From contig NC_013926.1 of NCBI RefSeq assembly GCF_000025665.1, forward strand, positions 30,001 through 62,000: a stretch of 32,000 nt of DNA, given 5' to 3'. Position numbers and translations under genes: made by a program. Below, one piece after another: positions 6,818-22,287 of the stretch. This DNA is from Aciduliprofundum boonei T469 (GTDB lineage Archaea > Thermoplasmatota > Thermoplasmata > Thermoplasmatales > Aciduliprofundaceae). The notes beneath the pieces were generated by a model. It made no database searches. It was not told where the DNA came from and worked only from the letters and a program-made list of their open reading frames with translations. How positions within the stretch are numbered: the stretch's first letter is position 1; each line of letters opens with the position of its first letter.

Positions 6818-7083
6818 AATTTTCACCTATGGAAATAAAAGAGGCACAAAAAATAATAGAGGAGGTTTATGGAGAAAAAGATAGGGAAAGAGGTGTATAT
6901 GCGGATTTGGTGTGGCTGGGGGAAGAATTGGGTGAGCTTTTCAAAGCCGTGCGAGAGAATAAAAGTATAGAAGAGGAAGTTGCAGATGTATTTGCATGGC
7001 TTCTCTCAGTAGCCAATGTTCTGGGCATAGATGTGGAAGAAGCATTCAAAATGAAGTATCTCACATCTCAAGGTCCTCCCTAG
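6814..7083 (+). CDS. MazG-like nucleotide pyrophosphohydrolase (single small domain)
   Basis: 89 aa. LGEELGELFKAV....EEEVADVFAWLLSVANVLGIDVEEAF is the EExxE...E..D MazG motif set. The ATGA start overlaps the upstream methyltransferase stop. Confidence 0.7.
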   Translation: MKFSPMEIKEAQKIIEEVYGEKDRERGVYADLVWLGEELGELFKAVRENKSIEEEVADVFAWLLSVANVLGIDVEEAFKMKYLTSQGPP

Positions 7084-7642
7084 TTAAATTCCTTAAATCA
7101 AGGATATCATCCGCAAATGTTGTCACCTGACTAAATTCTACCTCTTCAAGCTCTTTATCTAGCATAAAGATTATTCCTACAAGGCCATAGAGTCGTATCT
7201 CGTTAGTTATCATCCTTAGAAATCTTATGAATGATTGATAAGTGTTGTATGCTAAGAAAGTGCTGATGGATTCAATATAAACAAAATTCCTCTCGCCTTC
7301 CAACACTTTTAATCCATGTCTTATTGCACCCTCAAGTAACATAGCAGAAGGCTCATTAAGATAAATAACATTATTTCTCTCCTCAGGGGTTTTTATTGAA
7401 GCTGTAATGCAATCCACAAAGAAAAGCTTTGAGGGGTCTGCCCCCATCCTCCTTATTCGCTTTTCCACAGATGTATGGGGAATGTTCAAAGCCACATATA
7501 GTCCTTGGGTGTTATCATCCTTTAATAAATGAGCAACTATGGTATATCCTAACAATGCTCTAAGCTCTGCCTTTGTGAGCACCATCACTATTTTAGAGTC
7601 GTCTAACATCTCATCTATTATCTCTTTCAAATTGACGCTCAT
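7061..7642 (-). CDS. KaiC/RecA-like domain protein lacking a Walker A P-loop (inactivated paralog of the upstream ATPase)
   Basis: 193 aa and colinear with the 243-aa neighbour. VMVLTKAELRALLGYTIVAHLL replaces ISLVVGPSGIGKTILSVQWLAEGV, and FVYIESIS replaces RLVLDSLT. The ATGA start overlaps the upstream stop (7639-7642). Confidence 0.6.
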   Translation of the reverse strand: MSVNLKEIIDEMLDDSKIVMVLTKAELRALLGYTIVAHLLKDDNTQGLYVALNIPHTSVEKRIRRMGADPSKLFFVDCITASIKTPEERNNVIYLNEPSAMLLEGAIRHGLKVLEGERNFVYIESISTFLAYNTYQSFIRFLRMITNEIRLYGLVGIIFMLDKELEEVEFSQVTTFADDILDLRNLTREDLEM

Positions 7643-8370
7643 AGGATTATTCCCTCTTCCCTAATGTGGAAAGGTGTCCAATATGTTGGATGGTTAAACC
7701 CATACCTCTTCACTATCTTCAATGCTCTCATATGCATATTCTGATGCTCCATGAAATCCATAAGAATCGTGGCCTCGCTAAAATTTCTCATTTCCCCCAT
7801 CTTTTTTCCATCCTCATCCATTTCTTCAATTAACATAGTTGAAATCTTGTTATCATGGAAGAACCTTATCCAAGTGGCTCCGAGATATCTGAACATTGAA
7901 ATATCACCGACAATTTTCTCAATAGTAGTTAAGCTATCCAGCACTAATCTATCAATGGGCTTTTTCAAATTCAACTGTTCATCAAAGAAATCTGGCATAA
8001 CCTTATGAAAAATCTTCAAAATTTTCTCCTTTGTAAATGGTATCAAATCCTTCGGACTTATGTACATATCATACCAGTGTATTTTATCAACCGCATCCTT
8101 CAGCAATTTCATATCTCCATAGTACGCTATAACAGCCTCGGAGGGTAGAGTAGTTGAGATATAAACACATGTCTCACCATTCCTAACCCCCTCTGCTAGC
8201 CATTGTACTGAGAGTATCGTTTTACCTATTCCAGAAGGACCAACCACTAGCGAGATTCCATTTCTGGGAAAACCACCGCCAAGCGCTTCATCCAATTTTT
8301 TTATGCCAGTAGGCGCTACAGAAACTGTCATAGTTGGGCATTCTTGAATTGTGCATTTAAATTTTTTCAT
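7639..8370 (-). CDS. Single-domain KaiC-like (RecA-superfamily) ATPase
   Basis: 243 aa. It has TGIKKLDEALGGGFPRNGISLVVGPSGIGKT (Walker A), RLVLDSLT (Walker B) and an acidic LIEEMDE segment. Confidence 0.8.
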   Translation of the reverse strand: MKKFKCTIQECPTMTVSVAPTGIKKLDEALGGGFPRNGISLVVGPSGIGKTILSVQWLAEGVRNGETCVYISTTLPSEAVIAYYGDMKLLKDAVDKIHWYDMYISPKDLIPFTKEKILKIFHKVMPDFFDEQLNLKKPIDRLVLDSLTTIEKIVGDISMFRYLGATWIRFFHDNKISTMLIEEMDEDGKKMGEMRNFSEATILMDFMEHQNMHMRALKIVKRYGFNHPTYWTPFHIREEGIIL

Positions 8371-15435: not shown

Positions 15436-16143
15436 ATGCAGATTCATATTGTATTCGTTGAGCCACAATTCACAGGCAATATAGGATTCTTAGCTCGCAC
15501 AATGGCCAATTTTGGATTCAAGAATTTAATATTGGTAAATCCTCCAGAGTTGGATGAGGACGCTTATCGTTTTTCAAAGCACGCAAGATACATAATTGAA
15601 AATGCGGAGATATTGAACAACTTTGAAGAATTGAGGAGATCTCTTGATTATTTAGTTGCTACAAGTGGAGTTAGTACAAAATCACCTAAAAAATTTAAAA
15701 GGATAGCCCTAACACCCAGGGAATTTGCCCAGAAGGTTTGGAATTTCTCAGGGAATATTGGGATAGTGTTTGGTCGCGAGAATTATGGCCTTTACAATGA
15801 GGAGATTGAAAAATGCGATTCATTAATCACTATTCCAACCAGCGAGGAATATCCAATCATGAACATCACACATGCGGCAGCCATTATTCTCTACGAGATT
15901 TTTATGGAGAAGAGGGAGGAAGAAGGTATGCCCTTGGCGGAGGAATTTGAATTAAATCTCTTAAATGAGAGATTCTCAGAGCTTTTAGGACTCATAAATT
16001 TCCCAGATCATAAAAGGAAAAATACAGAAGTTATGTTCCGCAGGATAATTGGCAGAGCGATGCTTACAAAATGGGAGTATCACAGCATGATGGGGGTTAT
16101 GAAGAGAATAATTTACGCCATACAAGCCAAGGATGATTATTAA
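15436..16143 (+). CDS. SpoU/TrmH-family RNA 2'-O-methyltransferase (TrmJ-like)
   Basis: IVFVEPQFTGNIGFLARTMANFGFKNLILVNP, IVFGRENYGL and the ITIP....PIMNITHAAAIILYE knot motifs are present. I prefer ATG 15436 over the track's TTG 15412. Confidence 0.8.
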   Translation: MQIHIVFVEPQFTGNIGFLARTMANFGFKNLILVNPPELDEDAYRFSKHARYIIENAEILNNFEELRRSLDYLVATSGVSTKSPKKFKRIALTPREFAQKVWNFSGNIGIVFGRENYGLYNEEIEKCDSLITIPTSEEYPIMNITHAAAIILYEIFMEKREEEGMPLAEEFELNLLNERFSELLGLINFPDHKRKNTEVMFRRIIGRAMLTKWEYHSMMGVMKRIIYAIQAKDDY

Positions 16144-16148
16144 AATCT

Positions 16149-16172
16149 AAATATTAATTCGCATTTGTGTAA
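16149..16172 (+). promoter_or_regulatory. Promoter/operator copy 1: AAATATTAATTCGCATTTGTGTAA (TATA-like part plus conserved downstream box)
   Basis: This 24-mer ends 3 nt before ATG 16176 and is identical to 17343-17366. The TATA-like AAATATTAA lies about 25 nt upstream of the ATG, implying a leaderless mRNA. Confidence 0.6.
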
Positions 16173-16175
16173 AAA

Positions 16176-17321
16176 ATGACAAAAAATGAAGTGTTTGAGT
16201 ATGGAGAGCGTATTGCTAGAAATGTAACAACAATAACTTTAATACTGGCCATATTAAAATTCATAGTTGCATATTACACTCACTCGGTATCCATACTCGC
16301 AGATTCTTACCACAGCTTCGCAGATTTAATCCCAATCTCCGCCGCATGGATAGGTTTAAGAATAGCCCAGAGACCGAGAAGCGAGAAATTTCCATACGGG
16401 TACTATAAAGCCGAAAACCTGGCTGCGTTTATCGCCAGCATTTTCATTTTCTTACTCGCTTATGAGATAATCACAAAAAGTATATCTACCTTCTCAAGTA
16501 AAAACACAGTAGAGCATTCAATTGCGGGTTTAATCCTAACAGCAATTTTTGTTCTCATTTCATATATCTTATACATATACCAACTAAAAGCTGCAAAGAT
16601 TTCCAACTCTCAAGCCCTTATGGCAAACGCAAGAGAGACAAAAATGGATATATTTTCATCTATCGCCGTATTCATAGGATTTTTCGGCTCCAGTATGGGT
16701 TATCCTTGGATTGGTGGCATTGTGGGATTTCTAATAGCAATTCTGGTTATCCATGCAGGGTATCAGAGTATCCGTGATTCTGTACTATCACTCATGGATG
16801 CGGGATTACCTAAAGAAGATATAGAAAAAATAAGAAAAATTATTCTCTCAACGCCAAGGGTCAGGGAGGTAAAGAAAATTTACACAAGACGCTCTGGACC
16901 ATTCATCATGGTAGAAGTTGAAATTTCTGTACCTGAAAAGCTAAATGTTAAACAGGCGCATGAGATTGCTTCTGAAGTTGAAAAGAGAATAATGCAGATA
17001 AAGCAGGTTGACCATGCATTTGTTCATGTTGAGCCGCCCACGAAGAGTAGAAAGATTATAGCAATACCAGTAAATAAAGACCATTCCCCCAGCCCCACCT
17101 TCGGCTCTGCTCCTTATTTTGAGATATACCAAGTGGAAAAAGATGAGAAAAAATTGATAAAAACAGTAAAAAATCCAGGTGCAAATCTGGAAAAGAAGAG
17201 AGGAGTTAAGGCCGCACTTTTCTTAATAGAGCAAGGTGTGGATGAGGTCCATACAAAAAATATTGGAGAAGATAGCAAAAAGATACTGGAAGATGCCGGG
17301 ATAAAGATAAAATTTAAATAA
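16176..17321 (+). CDS. Cation diffusion facilitator (CDF) metal transporter with an additional C-terminal NifX/NifB-type (dinitrogenase FeMo-cofactor-binding family) domain
   Basis: 381 aa. CDF motifs are SILADSYHSFADL, FPYGYYKAENL and a cytoplasmic ZT-dimer-like VREVKKIYTRRSGPFIMVEVEI...HAFVHVEP. Then residues ~292-381 (nt ~17049-17318), KIIAIPVNKD..SPTFGSAPYFEIYQV....LIKTVKNPG.....GVKAALFLIEQGVDEVHTKNIGEDSKKILEDAGIKI, match the NifX-like fold pattern. Confidence 0.8.
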   Translation: MTKNEVFEYGERIARNVTTITLILAILKFIVAYYTHSVSILADSYHSFADLIPISAAWIGLRIAQRPRSEKFPYGYYKAENLAAFIASIFIFLLAYEIITKSISTFSSKNTVEHSIAGLILTAIFVLISYILYIYQLKAAKISNSQALMANARETKMDIFSSIAVFIGFFGSSMGYPWIGGIVGFLIAILVIHAGYQSIRDSVLSLMDAGLPKEDIEKIRKIILSTPRVREVKKIYTRRSGPFIMVEVEISVPEKLNVKQAHEIASEVEKRIMQIKQVDHAFVHVEPPTKSRKIIAIPVNKDHSPSPTFGSAPYFEIYQVEKDEKKLIKTVKNPGANLEKKRGVKAALFLIEQGVDEVHTKNIGEDSKKILEDAGIKIKFK

Positions 17322-17335
17322 TCGCTTTTGTGCAA
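17320..17335 (+). promoter_or_regulatory. Degenerate extra copy of the downstream box (AATCGCTTTTGTGCAA)
   Basis: It resembles AATTCGCATTTGTGTAA and lies 30 nt upstream of that box in the second promoter, overlapping the CDF stop codon. Confidence 0.3.
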
Positions 17336-17342
17336 AATCTTT

Positions 17343-17366
17343 AAATATTAATTCGCATTTGTGTAA
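17343..17366 (+). promoter_or_regulatory. Promoter/operator copy 2: AAATATTAATTCGCATTTGTGTAA
   Basis: This is an exact 24/24 repeat of 16149-16172. It is followed by GGTGA (17371-17375) and ATG 17381. Confidence 0.6.
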
Positions 17367-17380
17367 TATAGGTGATTGGA

Positions 17381-17605
17381 ATGCCTTATGGAGATTGCAC
17401 AGGACCGGATGGTAGAGGACCGAGAAGGAGAAGATTCGCAATTTACCAGAACTATCCACAGGACTACTATCCTCGGAGAGGTACATTTACAGGGTTCTTC
17501 CGAAGGCTATTTAGTCCCATGAATTATGGGCAGAGAGGATACGGCCAAGGAATGGGCTATGGAAGAGGCAGAGGGGGTAAAAGAGGACGCAGAGGTGGAT
17601 GGTAA
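17381..17605 (+). CDS. Small Arg/Gly-rich protein with a DUF5320-like N-terminal motif (74 aa)
   Basis: MPYGDCTGPDGRGPRRRR...GYGQGMGYGRGRGGKRGRRGGW has 15 R and 18 G of 74 residues by my count. The N-terminus resembles my recollection of the DUF5320 start (MPxGDxTGPxGxGP). ATG 17381 is preferred over GTG 17372. Confidence 0.6.
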   Translation: MPYGDCTGPDGRGPRRRRFAIYQNYPQDYYPRRGTFTGFFRRLFSPMNYGQRGYGQGMGYGRGRGGKRGRRGGW

Positions 17606-17818
17606 ATGCCTCGCTACGGATATGGTAGAGGTTACAGGGGCTCAGCGTTGAGCTTATACAGCCTGGTAGATATAGCAATAATTGCAGGGATCATATACCT
17701 GCTCATCTCTCTGTTTATGGTAGCAGCAGGATATGTAATAGCATTGATTGTGCTAATCTTGCTTAGGGAATTCCTAAGGGGAAGGTTTAATTGGAGAAGA
17801 ATGTATGTATGGAGGTGA
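17606..17818 (+). CDS. Small membrane protein with an R/G/Y-rich N-terminus (70 aa)
   Basis: MPRYGYGRGYRG is followed by about 40 hydrophobic residues (LYSLVDIAIIAGIIYLLISLFMVAAGYVIALIVLILL) and a basic tail. The ATG directly abuts the upstream TAA (17603-17605), and AGAGGTGG lies upstream. Confidence 0.55.
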   Translation: MPRYGYGRGYRGSALSLYSLVDIAIIAGIIYLLISLFMVAAGYVIALIVLILLREFLRGRFNWRRMYVWR

Positions 17819-17824
17819 TGAGAA

Positions 17825-18196
17825 ATGTATAGATATTACGGATATGGATACTATGGCCCTGGCTTTGGCTGGGGTCGTGGAAGAGGAAGAGGCTGGGGAA
17901 GAGGATTTGGCCGTGGGTTTGGAATGGGTAGAGGATACGGTGCCACACTCGGTTATTGTCCTTGGACCGGGTTACCCAGGGGATGGAGATGGAACTATCC
18001 CTATGGATATGGTACAAGCGTATCCCCATATTATCCAAGATACTACCCACAATACTATGGGTTAAATCCCTATGCCCAATATTACCAGCCATATCCCCAA
18101 GCTAATGAGAGAGAGTTATTAGAAAATGAAGCCAGGAATTTGGAAGAGAGATTAAGGGACATAGAAAGAAGAATAAGGGAGATAAAGGGTGAATAA
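17825..18196 (+). CDS. Gly/Tyr/Arg/Pro/Trp low-complexity protein with a C-terminal coiled coil (DUF5320-like, 123 aa)
   Basis: MYRYYGYGYYGPGFGWGRGRGRGWGRGFGRGFGMGRGYG...PYYPRYYPQYYGLNPYAQYYQPYPQ is followed by ERELLENEARNLEERLRDIERRIREIKGE. GGAGGTGA (17811-17818) lies 6 nt upstream of the ATG. Confidence 0.65.
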   Translation: MYRYYGYGYYGPGFGWGRGRGRGWGRGFGRGFGMGRGYGATLGYCPWTGLPRGWRWNYPYGYGTSVSPYYPRYYPQYYGLNPYAQYYQPYPQANERELLENEARNLEERLRDIERRIREIKGE

Positions 18197-18197
18197 A

Positions 18198-18671
18198 ATG
18201 CGTGTAGCCATAACTGCCGATGCACCAGATGAAAACTCTCCCATCTCCCCGATTTTTGGAAGATGCGCATACTATGCAATATACGACACTGCCACCGATA
18301 AACTAGAGTTCGTGCCCAATGCCTCTGCAATGTACGCAAGGGGGGCTGGAGTGCAAGCAGCACAGCAAATTGCAAATTTAGGAGTTCAAACAGTGATAAC
18401 TTCTGGAATCGCTGGACCAAACGCATCAATGGTCCTCGCACAGGCGGGTATCCAGGTAATCAACTCATTTCAAGGAACAATTAGAGATGCAATTGAGGCC
18501 GTTAAATCGGGAAGAATTTATTCAGAGCCACCGAGGGCTTTTCCACCACCACAGCCGCCATATCCGCCAATAAGCAAGGAGGAAGAACTCAGGATGCTTG
18601 AGGAAGAAAAAGAATACATTGAAAAGAGATTAGAAGAGATAAAAAAGAAACTTGAAGAGCTAAAAGAGTGA
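18198..18671 (+). CDS. NifX/NifB-type (dinitrogenase FeMo-cofactor family) domain protein with a Pro-rich linker and C-terminal coiled coil
   Basis: MRVAITAD....ISPIFGRCAYYAIYD......FVPN.......GAGVQAAQQIANLGVQTVITSGIAGPNASMVLAQAGIQV is the NifX-like pattern. It is followed by PPRAFPPPQPPYPP and EEELRMLEEEKEYIEKRLEEIKKKLEELKE. ATG 18198 lies 1 nt after the upstream stop; the track's GTG 18189 is an alternative start. Confidence 0.75.
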   Translation: MRVAITADAPDENSPISPIFGRCAYYAIYDTATDKLEFVPNASAMYARGAGVQAAQQIANLGVQTVITSGIAGPNASMVLAQAGIQVINSFQGTIRDAIEAVKSGRIYSEPPRAFPPPQPPYPPISKEEELRMLEEEKEYIEKRLEEIKKKLEELKE

Positions 18672-18692
18672 TTTTTCCTTATTTTCTTTTTT
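18672..18692 (+). terminator. Oligo-T tract (TTTTTCCTTATTTTCTTTTTT) after the operon
   Basis: T-rich run immediately after stop 18669-18671, of the archaeal oligo-T terminator type. Confidence 0.45.
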
Positions 18693-18711
18693 AATAATCA
18701 CTGCACAAAAC

Positions 18712-18718
18712 TTATATA
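18712..18718 (+). promoter_or_regulatory. TATA box (TTATATA) for the KaiC-like gene
   Basis: Centred about 25 nt upstream of ATG 18740, which would make the mRNA leaderless. Confidence 0.45.
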
Positions 18719-18739
18719 GGCAAGAAAGATGATTTTACG

Positions 18740-19447
18740 ATGCGAATTAGAACTGGCATACCTGGATTTGATGAGTTAGTTCAAGGTGGTTTAGTTGCCC
18801 AGAGGGTTTATATTATAGCGGGTCCTCCAGGCTCTGGAAAAACCACATTTGGCATACAATTTCTTCTTCAGGGTGCGAAGGAGGGGGAGCGTGGACTCTT
18901 TGTATCTCTAACTGAGGACCCAAAAACGATAATTGAGGATATATCCACATTCAATCTGAGCTTGAAGAGATATGCGTTATCGGGCCACATACTATTTGTG
19001 GATATGGGACCATTGAGCATTCAAAATTTGAATGGTGTAAAATCTCCCGAGAGTATTAAGAGTGCATATGCTCAAGAGGTCTTTAGAAGAATATACGCTA
19101 TTGTGAAAGCAAAGGGCATAAAGAGATTGGTTATTGATTCTGTTCTAACCCTAAAATATGGAGAGAAAAGCTTAGAGGATGAAAGCAAAGAGATCGCAAG
19201 ATTCTTCAGAAGCTTGAAAGATTTGAAAATCACAGTACTAATTCTTTCAGAAATGACTGATTTATCAAACTACACTCCCGAGCATTATATGGCCCATGGC
19301 CTTATCTTTCTCCATAATTTTCTAAACGGGCACACTATGACAAGGGCAATACAAATAATAAAGATGAGAGGCACAGCTCACGACTGCGATATGCACAAGA
19401 TGGAGATAACCCAAAATGGAATTAGGGTTTATTCCACGAAGGTGTGA
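18740..19447 (+). CDS. Single-domain KaiC-like (RecA-superfamily) ATPase
   Basis: 235 aa. It has TGIPGFDELVQGGLVAQRVYIIAGPPGSGKTTFGIQFL (Walker A), RLVIDSVL (Walker B), and the IIKMRGTAHD tail typical of KaiC/RadA-like proteins. Confidence 0.82.
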   Translation: MRIRTGIPGFDELVQGGLVAQRVYIIAGPPGSGKTTFGIQFLLQGAKEGERGLFVSLTEDPKTIIEDISTFNLSLKRYALSGHILFVDMGPLSIQNLNGVKSPESIKSAYAQEVFRRIYAIVKAKGIKRLVIDSVLTLKYGEKSLEDESKEIARFFRSLKDLKITVLILSEMTDLSNYTPEHYMAHGLIFLHNFLNGHTMTRAIQIIKMRGTAHDCDMHKMEITQNGIRVYSTKV

Positions 19448-19450
19448 GCT

Positions 19451-20113
19451 ATGAAATGCCCAATTTGTGGCTCAACAAATGTTACGAAACTTAAAACTGG
19501 AAGCTATAGATGCAATGATTGCGGTTTTGTGTTTTACCCTACTCGAGAGGTAATAATAGATATGCGAGACCTTCTAACTGGAGATGAATTAACAGAGGAG
19601 GAGATAAATGAATTAGGAGAAAAGATAAAGGAGCAAACTGAGAATGTGAGTGAGAAAATTTTTGGAAAGAGTGCCAAGAATGTTTTCAGAGCATTAAGCT
19701 CTCTGGATGAGATTTTAGCTCAATATAATGAAGATGATAGGGTGTTTGGCATATTTGCCGATTTTTCAGGAAGTGTTAAAGGCACTGTTATGATAATGGT
19801 TCAAGAGAACGAAATTGACATAATAAAGAAAATTTACAGAAAAAAAGAGGTTATAGAAGCACTAAAACAACTGGGAAAAGAAACGGCAGAAGGATTTAAA
19901 GAGATATTTCAAGATGATCTATTTCTTGAGGGAGTGGATATTGCCTACGATACCATACCCTCCATTATAAATTATCTAATTTCAGAGATCGCTGGGGAAA
20001 GAAATATGATTTTAAATGTAAAAATGATCGTGGATAAAGCACCAAAGGGAGAAATAATATTTGTTCCTCAAAAAGATAGCATAAAATATTTAAAGAGTGT
20101 GCTTGGGAACTGA
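19451..20113 (+). CDS. Zinc-ribbon protein with an uncharacterised C-terminal alpha/beta domain (partner of the KaiC-like ATPase)
   Basis: 220 aa. The N-terminus is MKCPICGSTNV...YRCNDCGFVF (CxxC...CxxC). The rest matches no family I can name with confidence; a weak CheC/CheX-like impression is unverified. The start is 3 nt after the KaiC-like stop. Confidence 0.55.
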   Translation: MKCPICGSTNVTKLKTGSYRCNDCGFVFYPTREVIIDMRDLLTGDELTEEEINELGEKIKEQTENVSEKIFGKSAKNVFRALSSLDEILAQYNEDDRVFGIFADFSGSVKGTVMIMVQENEIDIIKKIYRKKEVIEALKQLGKETAEGFKEIFQDDLFLEGVDIAYDTIPSIINYLISEIAGERNMILNVKMIVDKAPKGEIIFVPQKDSIKYLKSVLGN

Positions 20114-20634: not shown

Positions 20635-22287
20635 TCAGTATATTTGCACATATCTATTTAACATTACTGGCGGAATGCTTATCACCTTGTAGATGGGGAT
20701 TCCAAGCCCCGGTATTATCTTCATTGTTAACTTTGTTTGAGGTGTCAGTGTTAATCCCACATCCCTGGCATTTATGTACATGACAATAATCGCACCTTCT
20801 TCAAGTATATAACTCTGCGTGAACTCTCCGGATGGGTCATTTATCACACTTACACCATAATGGGTAGCATCTGCTGCTTCCACCCCAAAACCACTGGAAT
20901 TGAGTTTTAAAGATGCTTCAACTTTGCCATCCGTAAGCTCTACAATCACAGTATTGAAATCAACGGGTTTAGAACCTGGACCTAAAGAAAGTTTTATTTG
21001 CAACACCTGAATTGAATTTTGGGGTACTATAATCTGACCATAATGGGACGCATTATCCACTGGAACCACAAGATAATAATATGTCTGGTAGGGCATATAT
21101 CTATAATCATTGAAACTCGTGGTATTGACTATGGCATAGGGCTTAGTGTTGAAAACTTCTGTAGTGGAAACATCAAGATAATTTGTAGAGCGATAAATGT
21201 AATATGCTTTAATCCCGCTCTGGTTATCCTTAGCCGCACTCCATTCAAGATGTATATAATATTGCGAGGTTTCGGCCCTTAAACCGCTTATGGAAGATGG
21301 CTTTGTGGTATCCACACGGGTAACATTCACACCTGATGTTTTTGTTATAAATCCTACATTTCCTGCCTTATCAACTACGAGTATAGCATAGTACCAAGTG
21401 CCCTTTGCAGGTGGATAATCCATATAAGCTGTAACATTAGGGCCTACAGTAGCAACTAAAGTTGCGTTATTGATAATTTTCTTGGTATAATTTACATCAG
21501 ATTGGGTTATCTCATTATTTGATCTATATATCTTCTGGTATGCAATTCCACTTCCACCAGTATCACTGGCAGTCCAAGAGAGCATAACACCATATCCTGC
21601 AGGGGTTATGGAATTAATACTCCCTGTTGGAGCAGATGTATCTGGCGTACCTGTACCTGTATAAACAGTTTGATTCACAGCAGAATAGAGGACATAATTC
21701 CCGACTCTATCGTAGCCGATTATTGCATATCCATAATACTTGCTAGCATTCACACCGTAATCCACATATACCCTATCATTTCCAAATCCAGAGGTGAAAG
21801 TGGCAACCAAATTTCCTACAGCTTTTATGTAATTCACATCCTTAACTATATACTTTACAGCGGTAAAACTATCACCGCTAACTCTATAAAGCTCCTCTTT
21901 CCACATGCCGCTTTCCCAATCTACAGCTGAGTTCCAAACTATTTTTACAGATAGAGGATTTGTGCTATTTACACTCACATTTAATATAACTCCTCCCCTA
22001 GGAGGCTGAGTGTCACTATGAATGGGCGCCTTAACACTCACAACGGAGGGGTCTTTTCCATCTATATCCCTATCCCCAAGGATATTTAGAATCCGCAGTG
22101 AGCTTGTAATCTGCGAGGTCACATCTGATGCCACCTTTTCTCCTTGCTCTCGCAAAGTCACACCCACATATATGATTAGGGAGGATGCAATAGCGGCCAC
22201 TATGATTATCGCTATGAAAAGTATCAAGGTTGCAATGCCTATATCACCCTCTTCTTTTCTGTATATCTTTTTCATATTTTCAACCAC
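20635..22287 (-). CDS. Archaellin (FlaB/ArlB)-family protein with three FN3-like domains inserted
   Basis: 550 aa. A class III signal-peptide-like N-terminus (KEEG-DIGIATLILFIAIIIVAAIASSLII) is followed by LREQGEKVASDVTSQITSSLRILNILG. The archaellin-type C-terminus is LSLGPGSKPVDFNTVIVELTDG...MKIIPGLGIPIYKVISIP. Three repeats of about 100 aa lie between them. An alternative start is ATG 22275 (MKKIYRK...). Confidence 0.7.
   Translation of the reverse strand: MVENMKKIYRKEEGDIGIATLILFIAIIIVAAIASSLIIYVGVTLREQGEKVASDVTSQITSSLRILNILGDRDIDGKDPSVVSVKAPIHSDTQPPRGGVILNVSVNSTNPLSVKIVWNSAVDWESGMWKEELYRVSGDSFTAVKYIVKDVNYIKAVGNLVATFTSGFGNDRVYVDYGVNASKYYGYAIIGYDRVGNYVLYSAVNQTVYTGTGTPDTSAPTGSINSITPAGYGVMLSWTASDTGGSGIAYQKIYRSNNEITQSDVNYTKKIINNATLVATVGPNVTAYMDYPPAKGTWYYAILVVDKAGNVGFITKTSGVNVTRVDTTKPSSISGLRAETSQYYIHLEWSAAKDNQSGIKAYYIYRSTNYLDVSTTEVFNTKPYAIVNTTSFNDYRYMPYQTYYYLVVPVDNASHYGQIIVPQNSIQVLQIKLSLGPGSKPVDFNTVIVELTDGKVEASLKLNSSGFGVEAADATHYGVSVINDPSGEFTQSYILEEGAIIVMYINARDVGLTLTPQTKLTMKIIPGLGIPIYKVISIPPVMLNRYVQIY

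Follow-up and report, generated by a model that had tools for sequence, protein, structure and literature searches.

Organization and authenticity of the mini-protein genes

The genes considered here belong to Aciduliprofundum boonei T469, an anaerobic, peptide-using vent thermoacidophile, and lie in a window of 32,000 nucleotides, the whole stretch of DNA that was analysed (contig NC_013926.1, positions 30,001 to 62,000 of the forward strand), to whose numbering and plus strand all coordinates refer unless stated otherwise. Three tightly packed open reading frames (ORFs) encode proteins that we read as probable pieces of an IssA-like iron-sulfur system. ORF1 (17381–17605), which has orthologs in 11 loci, specifies 74 amino acids (aa) with a DUF5320-type N-terminal motif (MPYGDCTGPDGRGP) and an Arg/Gly/aromatic tail ending in GGW. 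ORF2 (17606–17818; Aboo_0045) specifies a small membrane protein of 70 aa, recognized from its AlphaFold model and its homologs, and ORF3 (17825–18196) a DUF5320 protein of 123 aa, assigned by Pfam, alignment, AlphaFold and hhalign. They are followed by a gene for a 157-aa protein (18198–18671; ADD07859.1) with a NifX-like domain, a Pro-rich linker and a DUF5320-type coiled coil according to Pfam, and are preceded by Aboo_0044 (16176–17321), which by the same search encodes a cation diffusion facilitator (CDF) transporter with a C-terminal NifX-like (Nitro_FeMo-Co) domain. The trio of ORF1, ORF2 and ORF3 recurs in 11 aligned loci of the DHVE2/Aciduliprofundum lineage, DHVE2 being the deep-sea hydrothermal vent group that includes A. 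boonei. A literature search on Aboo_0044 to Aboo_0047 found no expression data.

One could argue that these ORFs are untranslated artefacts of low-complexity, G-rich DNA, given that several frames are open across the region, that different gene callers call ORF1 differently, and that a look-up of the exact ORF3 sequence returned no entry from the protein collection. However, only the annotated frames are open in all 11 orthologous loci, with a ratio of nonsynonymous to synonymous differences (pN/pS) of 0.1–0.55 compared with about 0.7–4 in the other sense frames. Aligned without gaps to close strains, ORF1 shows 0/0/3, 0/0/3 and 1/0/4 differences at the first, second and third codon positions, and ORF2 0/0/2, 0/0/4 and 1/0/4; nearly all changes are thus at third positions, with at most one amino-acid change. 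Furthermore, each gene has a conserved start and a Shine-Dalgarno-like (SD-like) box, ORF3 matches its Pfam family above the curated cutoff, and related contigs carry a 123-aa gene call at the ORF3 position. Judged by these alignments, all three annotated ORFs are real genes under purifying selection, and the artefact explanation, which has next to no chance of being correct, is already refuted by the comparative data. A first-pass annotation of this DNA, made without database searches, had placed three tandem mini-protein genes here and had proposed aligning orthologous regions to look for frame bias; both the gene assignment and the expected bias are borne out.

The same annotation had cautioned that the region generates long spurious ORFs in other frames, and this is indeed the case. 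An 86-aa ORF on the plus strand and a 101-aa ORF on the minus strand overlap ORF3, and public annotations, misled at ORF1, often put an acidic alternative-frame ORF of 41 or 107 aa in its place. Such calls are found in the window (17526–17651) and in the related loci L001 (5530–5853), L065, L066 and L068 (2421–2546) and L069 (1384–1509), while the 74-aa frame is called in one NCBI assembly only, GCA_013329755.1 (L067), among the places inspected. The ORF1 product is identical to WP_008085399.1, annotated as 'hypothetical protein'. An exact-sequence look-up did not return the 123-aa ORF3 product from the protein collection, yet L067, identical in DNA, has a 123-aa call there. The result is an annotation problem, with ORF1 often carried in the wrong frame in public records.

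The genes are also closely linked to one another. The ORF1 stop codon directly abuts the ORF2 ATG in nine of the 11 loci, and the SD-like boxes of ORF2, ORF3 and the NifX-like gene lie within the last codons of the preceding gene (17590–17605, 17808–17824 and 18183–18197), overlapping codons for RGGW, VWR and KGE, each followed by the stop. ORF1, ORF2, ORF3 and the NifX-like gene are therefore probably translationally coupled, and the conserved C-terminal residues of the preceding genes may for the same reason be partly constrained at the nucleotide level.

ORF3 carries an IssA-type tail

ORF3 consists of a low-complexity region followed by a coiled coil. G, Y, R, P and W make up 68 of its first 90 residues; the background level, taken from 20 further proteins encoded in the window, is 21.6% (binomial p 1.5e-27). 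Residues 1–92 contain 10 K/R, no D/E, 23 G, 29 aromatic residues and one Cys. In the AlphaFold model residues 1–91 are disordered, and a helix spans residues 95–121 (18107–18187) with a confidence score (pLDDT) of about 88; within it, residues 98–120 form a clean a/d heptad (L99, A103, L106, L110, I113, I117 and I120). The composition given in the first-pass annotation (68 of 90 residues here, 15 R and 18 G in ORF1) is exact, its clean heptad coil is confirmed, and the disorder prediction that it had called for gives the result just described. ORF3 matches the Pfam family DUF5320 (PF17253) with 35.6 bits over profile positions 8–98 of 99, above the gathering cutoff of 27 bits, in agreement with the family named in the first-pass annotation.

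The ORF3 family is small, with 70 representatives at E <= 1e-3 among 1.84 billion proteins. An alignment of 23 sequences shows a conserved core, GxGxGAxLGYCPWTGLPRGWRW, with twelve invariant columns; in ORF3 it occupies residues 35–56 (17927–17992; GRGYGATLGYCPWTGLPRGWRW) and holds the only Cys. A single Cys is present in all 23 members, within the motif GATLGYCPWTGLPRGWRW, and the disordered regions of the 23 proteins contain 142 K/R versus 9 D/E. Past the core the homologs have a variable Tyr/Pro linker and then the coiled coil. The family profile matched, among solved structures, influenza HA2 only (E about 1e-4); in HA2, too, a Gly-rich stretch, the fusion peptide, precedes a coiled coil, and we take the match as a compositional coincidence and not as a relationship. 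An Rfam scan of positions 16000–19000 gave no match, and the tandem repeats of the region reflect GRG (Gly-Arg-Gly) codons and coiled coils only.

Among the matches of ORF3 are Thermococcales-type proteins of about 200 aa (P0027–P0044), with a NifX-like domain, a Pro-rich stretch and GRG repeats, whose tail (...GWGRGFGRGWGRGRGFGRGWGRGRGWGARLGYCPWTGQPSRR..., including GARLGYCPWTG) holds their single Cys. This architecture agrees with the published description of IssA (SipA, PF2025), an iron-sulfur storage protein of Pyrococcus furiosus (Vaccaro et al. 2017, PMC5524996). IssA combines an IPR003731 domain of 109 residues with a disordered, Pro-rich tail that in its later part is cationic, aromatic and Gly-rich and holds the only Cys; the tail as such is conserved within Thermococcales. 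The protein stores iron and sulfur as anionic thioferrate, which the tail is proposed to wrap (PMC5524996). ORF3 matches the IssA-type proteins in phmmer with an E of 9.6e-10, and their tails in Smith-Waterman alignment with a score of 200 versus 55.8 +/- 10.4 for shuffled tails, none of 2000 reaching it; hhalign against the Thermococcales IssA-type tails gives 99.3% (E 4e-20). By these alignments the similarity is ordered and not merely compositional, and the disordered, acid-free Arg/aromatic/Gly region of ORF3, in which the single Cys lies, and the IssA-type tail are homologous. That sequences of this kind are unusual in archaea, as the first-pass annotation had it, is not supported: a tail of the same type, including the ordered Cys motif, belongs to the published archaeal IssA (PMC5524996), and similar tails occur on many NifX-like proteins of archaea and bacteria. 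The Pfam DUF5320 model does not match the IssA-type tails, and the ORF3 subfamily therefore appears as a bridge between the two. Our literature search found no published function for DUF5320, and no paper linking it to IssA or covering these genes, the motif or the locus tags.

The NifX-like partner and gene neighbourhood

The NifX-like domain (IPR003731/PF02579) is absent from ORF1, ORF2 and ORF3 and is supplied by the genes at 18198–18671 and 16176–17321. The protein encoded next to ORF3 matches Nitro_FeMo-Co (2.3e-19) and, over profile positions 47–99, DUF5320 (27.6 bits). Its C-terminus and that of ORF3 have the same heptad register and motif (alignment score 68 versus 26 +/- 5 for shuffled sequences), so that at the level of sequence the two proteins end in the same coiled-coil motif. 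Its NifX-like domain has a Cys at residue 23 (the FGRC position, near the N-terminus); the Thermococcales IssA-type domains have none at this position, and nearly all have none in the whole domain.

The pairing is widespread. Among 59 loci of archaea and of WOR-3, Hydrothermota, Aminicenantes and Caldisericota bacteria, nearly all have a NifX-like gene next after the ORF3-type gene, and almost all of these NifX-like proteins carry a C-terminal extension, which may be a Pro-rich linker with a DUF5320-type coil, a GRG tail with an aromatic last residue, or the two combined. Of 64 neighbouring proteins in the loci that lie outside the DHVE2 lineage, 17 are MinD/ParA ATPases containing 4Fe-4S inserts.

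These neighbours raise the alternative that the operon encodes adaptor or chaperone subunits of a metal-cluster trafficking complex like that of the 'orange protein' (ORP), delivering discrete Fe-S or Mo clusters and storing no mineral. In the Desulfovibrio ORP complex a NifX-like 'orange protein' is associated with MinD-like 4Fe-4S ATPases (Orp3/Orp4), Mrp, and Orp5, which is described as resembling a [2Fe-2S] protein (PMC6345978). ORP itself (2WFB, E 3.5e-15) is the best solved relative of the NifX-like neighbour, ahead of 1RDU and MTH1175 (1EO1), and relatives of both ORF3 and ORF1 adjoin the 4Fe-4S MinD/ParA genes. However, neither the A. boonei operon nor the rest of the window contains a MinD-like or Mrp gene, the tail homology is specifically to IssA-type proteins, and a cationic tail is reported to be absent from ORP proteins (PMC6345978). 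We thus consider the trafficking alternative unlikely.

ORF1 and ORF2

ORF1 contains 15 R and 18 G in 74 aa (R+G binomial p 7e-12). It scores 12.1 bits against DUF5320 (E 0.47, profile positions 1–54), below the cutoff, and the match is restricted to the N-terminal half with the motif MPxGDxTGP; among the 11 ORF1 orthologs, four reach E <= 1, with 5e-7 as the lowest value. The N-terminal motif (MPxGDGTGPxGxGP) and the coiled coil are thus not in one chain here, the motif being on ORF1 and the coil on ORF3. It had been suggested that the family is split or expanded at this locus, and a protein from another locus gives direct support: in P0052 (158 aa) an ORF1-like part leads into the ORF3 core within a single chain, and the next gene is NifX-like. 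In locus L078 an ORF1-like gene stands before two genes for MinD/ParA ATPases, of which one has 4Fe-4S inserts, and before two NifX-like genes. By sequence comparison the RG (Arg-Gly) tail of ORF1 resembles those on other NifX-like proteins.

ORF2 has a short RG/Y N-terminus (MPRYGYGRGYRG), a hydrophobic stretch of about 41 residues and a basic C-terminus. The hydrophobic stretch had been predicted as a hairpin; the stretch stands, but the hairpin is not supported, as AlphaFold models one continuous helix over residues 17–69 (pLDDT 94 for residues 21–50). The Pfam search found no DUF5320 match in ORF2. Homologs lie directly downstream of the IssA-type genes in L070, L072, L074 and L075 (uncalled in L075), the three that were scored having E values of 5e-13 to 8e-9, and by this comparison ORF2 and the small membrane protein whose gene immediately follows IssA-type genes are homologs. 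An identification of ORF2 with SipB (PF2026) was considered and dropped; in T. onnurineus SipB bears the annotation 'ATPase C-terminus' and does not lie next to SipA.

The Thermococcales-type loci L070 (3468–4886), L072 (2519–4389) and L074 (2517–4334) have the order IssA-type gene, then ORF2-like membrane protein, and L072 and L074 continue with a NifX-like gene whose product has a short GRG tail with W as its last residue. All three have another NifX-like gene just upstream, and L074 has two MinD-like ATPase genes with 4Fe-4S inserts beside the cluster.

The Arg/Gly/aromatic regions also invite a different interpretation, namely that these are RGG-type (Arg-Gly-Gly) nucleic-acid-binding or condensate proteins, whose low-complexity regions bind RNA, DNA or G-quadruplexes while the coil gives the multivalency for phase separation. 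The composition fits, and ORF3 pairs a disordered region with an oligomerising helix. In P0058, moreover, an ORF1-like module is fused to DUF134, a putative helix-turn-helix DNA-binding domain, and a computational survey proposed Methanosarcina mazei DUF134 and DUF5320 proteins as candidate G-quadruplex binders by their RG motif (PMC7565180). On the other hand, the Pfam search of the operon revealed neither RNA- nor DNA-binding domains, NifX-like domains, the CDF transporter and, in relatives, 4Fe-4S ATPases make up the conserved partners, and ORF3 has its ordered Cys motif in common with a tail tied experimentally to an inorganic polyanion. The first-pass comparison with eukaryotic RNA-binding and condensate-forming proteins is not supported, the gene context being related to metals and iron-sulfur and not to nucleic acids. 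We regard nucleic-acid binding as very unlikely, although it and iron-sulfide binding are not fully exclusive, since a mineral-templated assembly could resemble a condensate.

A shared promoter cassette and the limits of the operon

The promoter region of the mini-protein operon (17323–17376), delimited by cross-locus conservation, contains box 1 (CGCTTTTGTGCAA, 17323–17335), a TATA-like element (TTTAAATATT, 17340–17349), box 2 (CGCATTTGTGTAA, 17354–17366) and the SD-like GGTGAT before ORF1 (17371–17376). The cassette reads TTTGTGCAAAA, two bases, TTTAAATATTA, two bases, TCGCATTTG(T/A)GTAA, 3–4 bases, GGTGAT, 4–5 bases and ATG, and has two copies of CGCWTTTGTGYAA around the TTTAAATATT box. It is kept almost base for base in 13 distinct loci (besides the window, L001, L004, L008–L011, L013, L015, L016, L020, L041 and L044), four of them with unrelated upstream sequence, and even where the coding DNA is only about 55–60% identical. 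The box CGCNTTTGTGYAA occurs three times in the window versus 0.22 expected. The operator-like box, a putative regulator site (TCGCATTTGWGTAA), suggests regulation.

A near-identical copy of the cassette (AAAATCTAAATATTAATTCGCATTTGTGTAA, 16146–16172) precedes the CDF gene, and the same arrangement before this gene is seen in L010 and L015 as well. We read the common cassette as a sign that the CDF-NifX transporter gene is co-regulated with the ORF1 operon. The transporter matches Cation_efflux (1.6e-44), ZT_dimer (2.6e-22) and Nitro_FeMo-Co (2.9e-14) in Pfam; its nearest NCBIfam models are MamB, MntE, FieF and MamM, with all scores below their cutoffs.

Downstream, a T-rich run (TTTTTCCTTATTTTCTTTTTT, 18672–18692) follows the fourth gene, and a new TATA-like box then precedes a KaiC-like gene. 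Oligo-T terminators are known in archaea, and the run, read from the sequence, is therefore taken as the likely end of the unit, which in our reading comprises ORF1, ORF2, ORF3 and the gene for the NifX-like coil protein (17381–18671). The KaiC-like ATPase and the 220-aa zinc-ribbon protein beyond it are excluded from the operon because the T-rich run and the separate TATA-like box intervene. A scan with promoter and terminator models was uninformative, the models being bacterial and the host archaeal.

The KaiC-like ATPase and the zinc-ribbon protein are syntenic with the trio in all DHVE2-type loci. A KaiC-like ATPase paired with a protein of about 200 aa occurs twice in the window, at 18740–20113 and at 7061–8370, and it is the first of these pairs that is syntenic with the trio. 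A 550-aa protein encoded on the minus strand (20635–22287) has a single match in Pfam, an archaellin-like stretch of 68 residues at its N-terminus, and is kept beside the KaiC-like pair in related loci.

A proposed IssA-like system in pieces

We propose, with a probability of roughly 0.6, that in the four-gene operon the parts which Thermococcales unite in and around IssA are encoded as separate polypeptides, and that the operon serves an IssA-like handling of iron and sulfur. That the parts are homologous to the IssA gene cluster is very probable from the alignments, while the predicted function, binding of iron-sulfide by the operon products, has odds that we put only slightly better than even. 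The NifX-like domain and the cationic tails would be held together by the coiled coils, the domain would nucleate an iron-sulfide species that the tails wrap and neutralise, as proposed for IssA, and ORF2 would tie the assembly to the membrane near the MamB/FieF-like transporter. If the tails do wrap iron-sulfide, the low-complexity composition would therefore serve to bind an inorganic polyanion and not RNA. A. boonei is reportedly a sulfur- and iron-reducing thermoacidophile.

Several observations weigh against this proposal. First of all, the putative identity of P0027–P0044 as IssA (PF2025, Q8TZG9 in P. furiosus) rests on taxon, architecture and the published description, and the DUF5320 model, as noted, misses the IssA-type tails. 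Second, P. furiosus without IssA still forms thioferrate-like iron, and whether the role of IssA is storage or detoxification is debated (PMC8219758). Third, the NifX-like partner lacks a coiled coil in some Thermoplasmata loci, and heteromeric pairing through the coils is therefore not general. The resemblance of ORF1 to IssA-type tails is weak (three of 2000 shuffles reach the score), and its module is, in P0058, attached to a putative DNA-binding domain. Finally, the window has no Suf genes, in addition to lacking the 4Fe-4S MinD-like ATPases and Mrp.

A more far-reaching version, which we rate as rather unlikely, is that the DUF5320 proteins, widespread in anaerobes, are free-standing IssA-type tails, and that those of A. 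boonei act within a membrane-associated apparatus for handling iron-sulfide mineral. In this apparatus the MamB/FieF-like CDF-NifX transporter and an RG protein anchored in the membrane would be accompanied by cationic disordered regions, multimerised through coiled coils, which would serve as template or coat for an inorganic polyanion. If true, this would be a condensate of protein and mineral, or a primitive compartment for biomineralisation, controlled by a single dedicated regulator.

What is new here is the proposed IssA-like system in pieces, with a membrane partner and a co-regulated transporter. The tail link provides a testable functional hypothesis for a Pfam family that has no published function. 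The operon may furthermore offer a natural dissection of IssA: if parts joined by coils suffice, the roles of the domain, the tail and the membrane partner become separable. The conserved small membrane partner and the transporter would be additions to the current picture of IssA.

Comparison with known systems

IssA is the closest comparison. Both systems have a NifX-like domain (IPR003731/PF02579), a Pro-rich linker and a cationic, aromatic, Gly-rich tail with a single Cys, and in both an ORF2-like small membrane protein is encoded adjacent. They differ, as compared at the level of sequence only, in that A. boonei has the domain and the tail on separate polypeptides, each ending in a coiled coil, whereas IssA has no coil; A. 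boonei also has an extra RG mini-protein with the MPxGDxTGP motif, and a CDF-NifX transporter gene that we read as co-regulated with its operon. Second, canonical DUF5320 proteins such as P0140 resemble ORF3 in the GRG region, the Cys and the C-terminal coiled coil, and ORF1 in the canonical N-terminal motif. P0140 joins motif and coil in one chain, whereas in A. boonei they are divided between ORF1 and ORF3 with a membrane-protein gene in between, and the ORF3 subfamily has GATLGYCPWTGLPRGWRW in place of the canonical motif. Third, the ORP complex has in common with the operon a NifX-like small protein, the best PDB match of the last operon gene, and MinD-like 4Fe-4S ATPases lie in clusters with ORF3 and ORF1 relatives in other taxa but are not part of the A. 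boonei operon. Finally, the RGG domains of eukaryotic FUS-type proteins are alike in Arg/Gly/aromatic composition, in predicted disorder and in a linked oligomerisation element. They differ in that there is no sequence homology, that RNA-binding domains are absent here and that the gene context is one of metal handling, and the Cys motif of ORF3 is invariant and ordered, which sets this protein apart from a domain defined by composition only.

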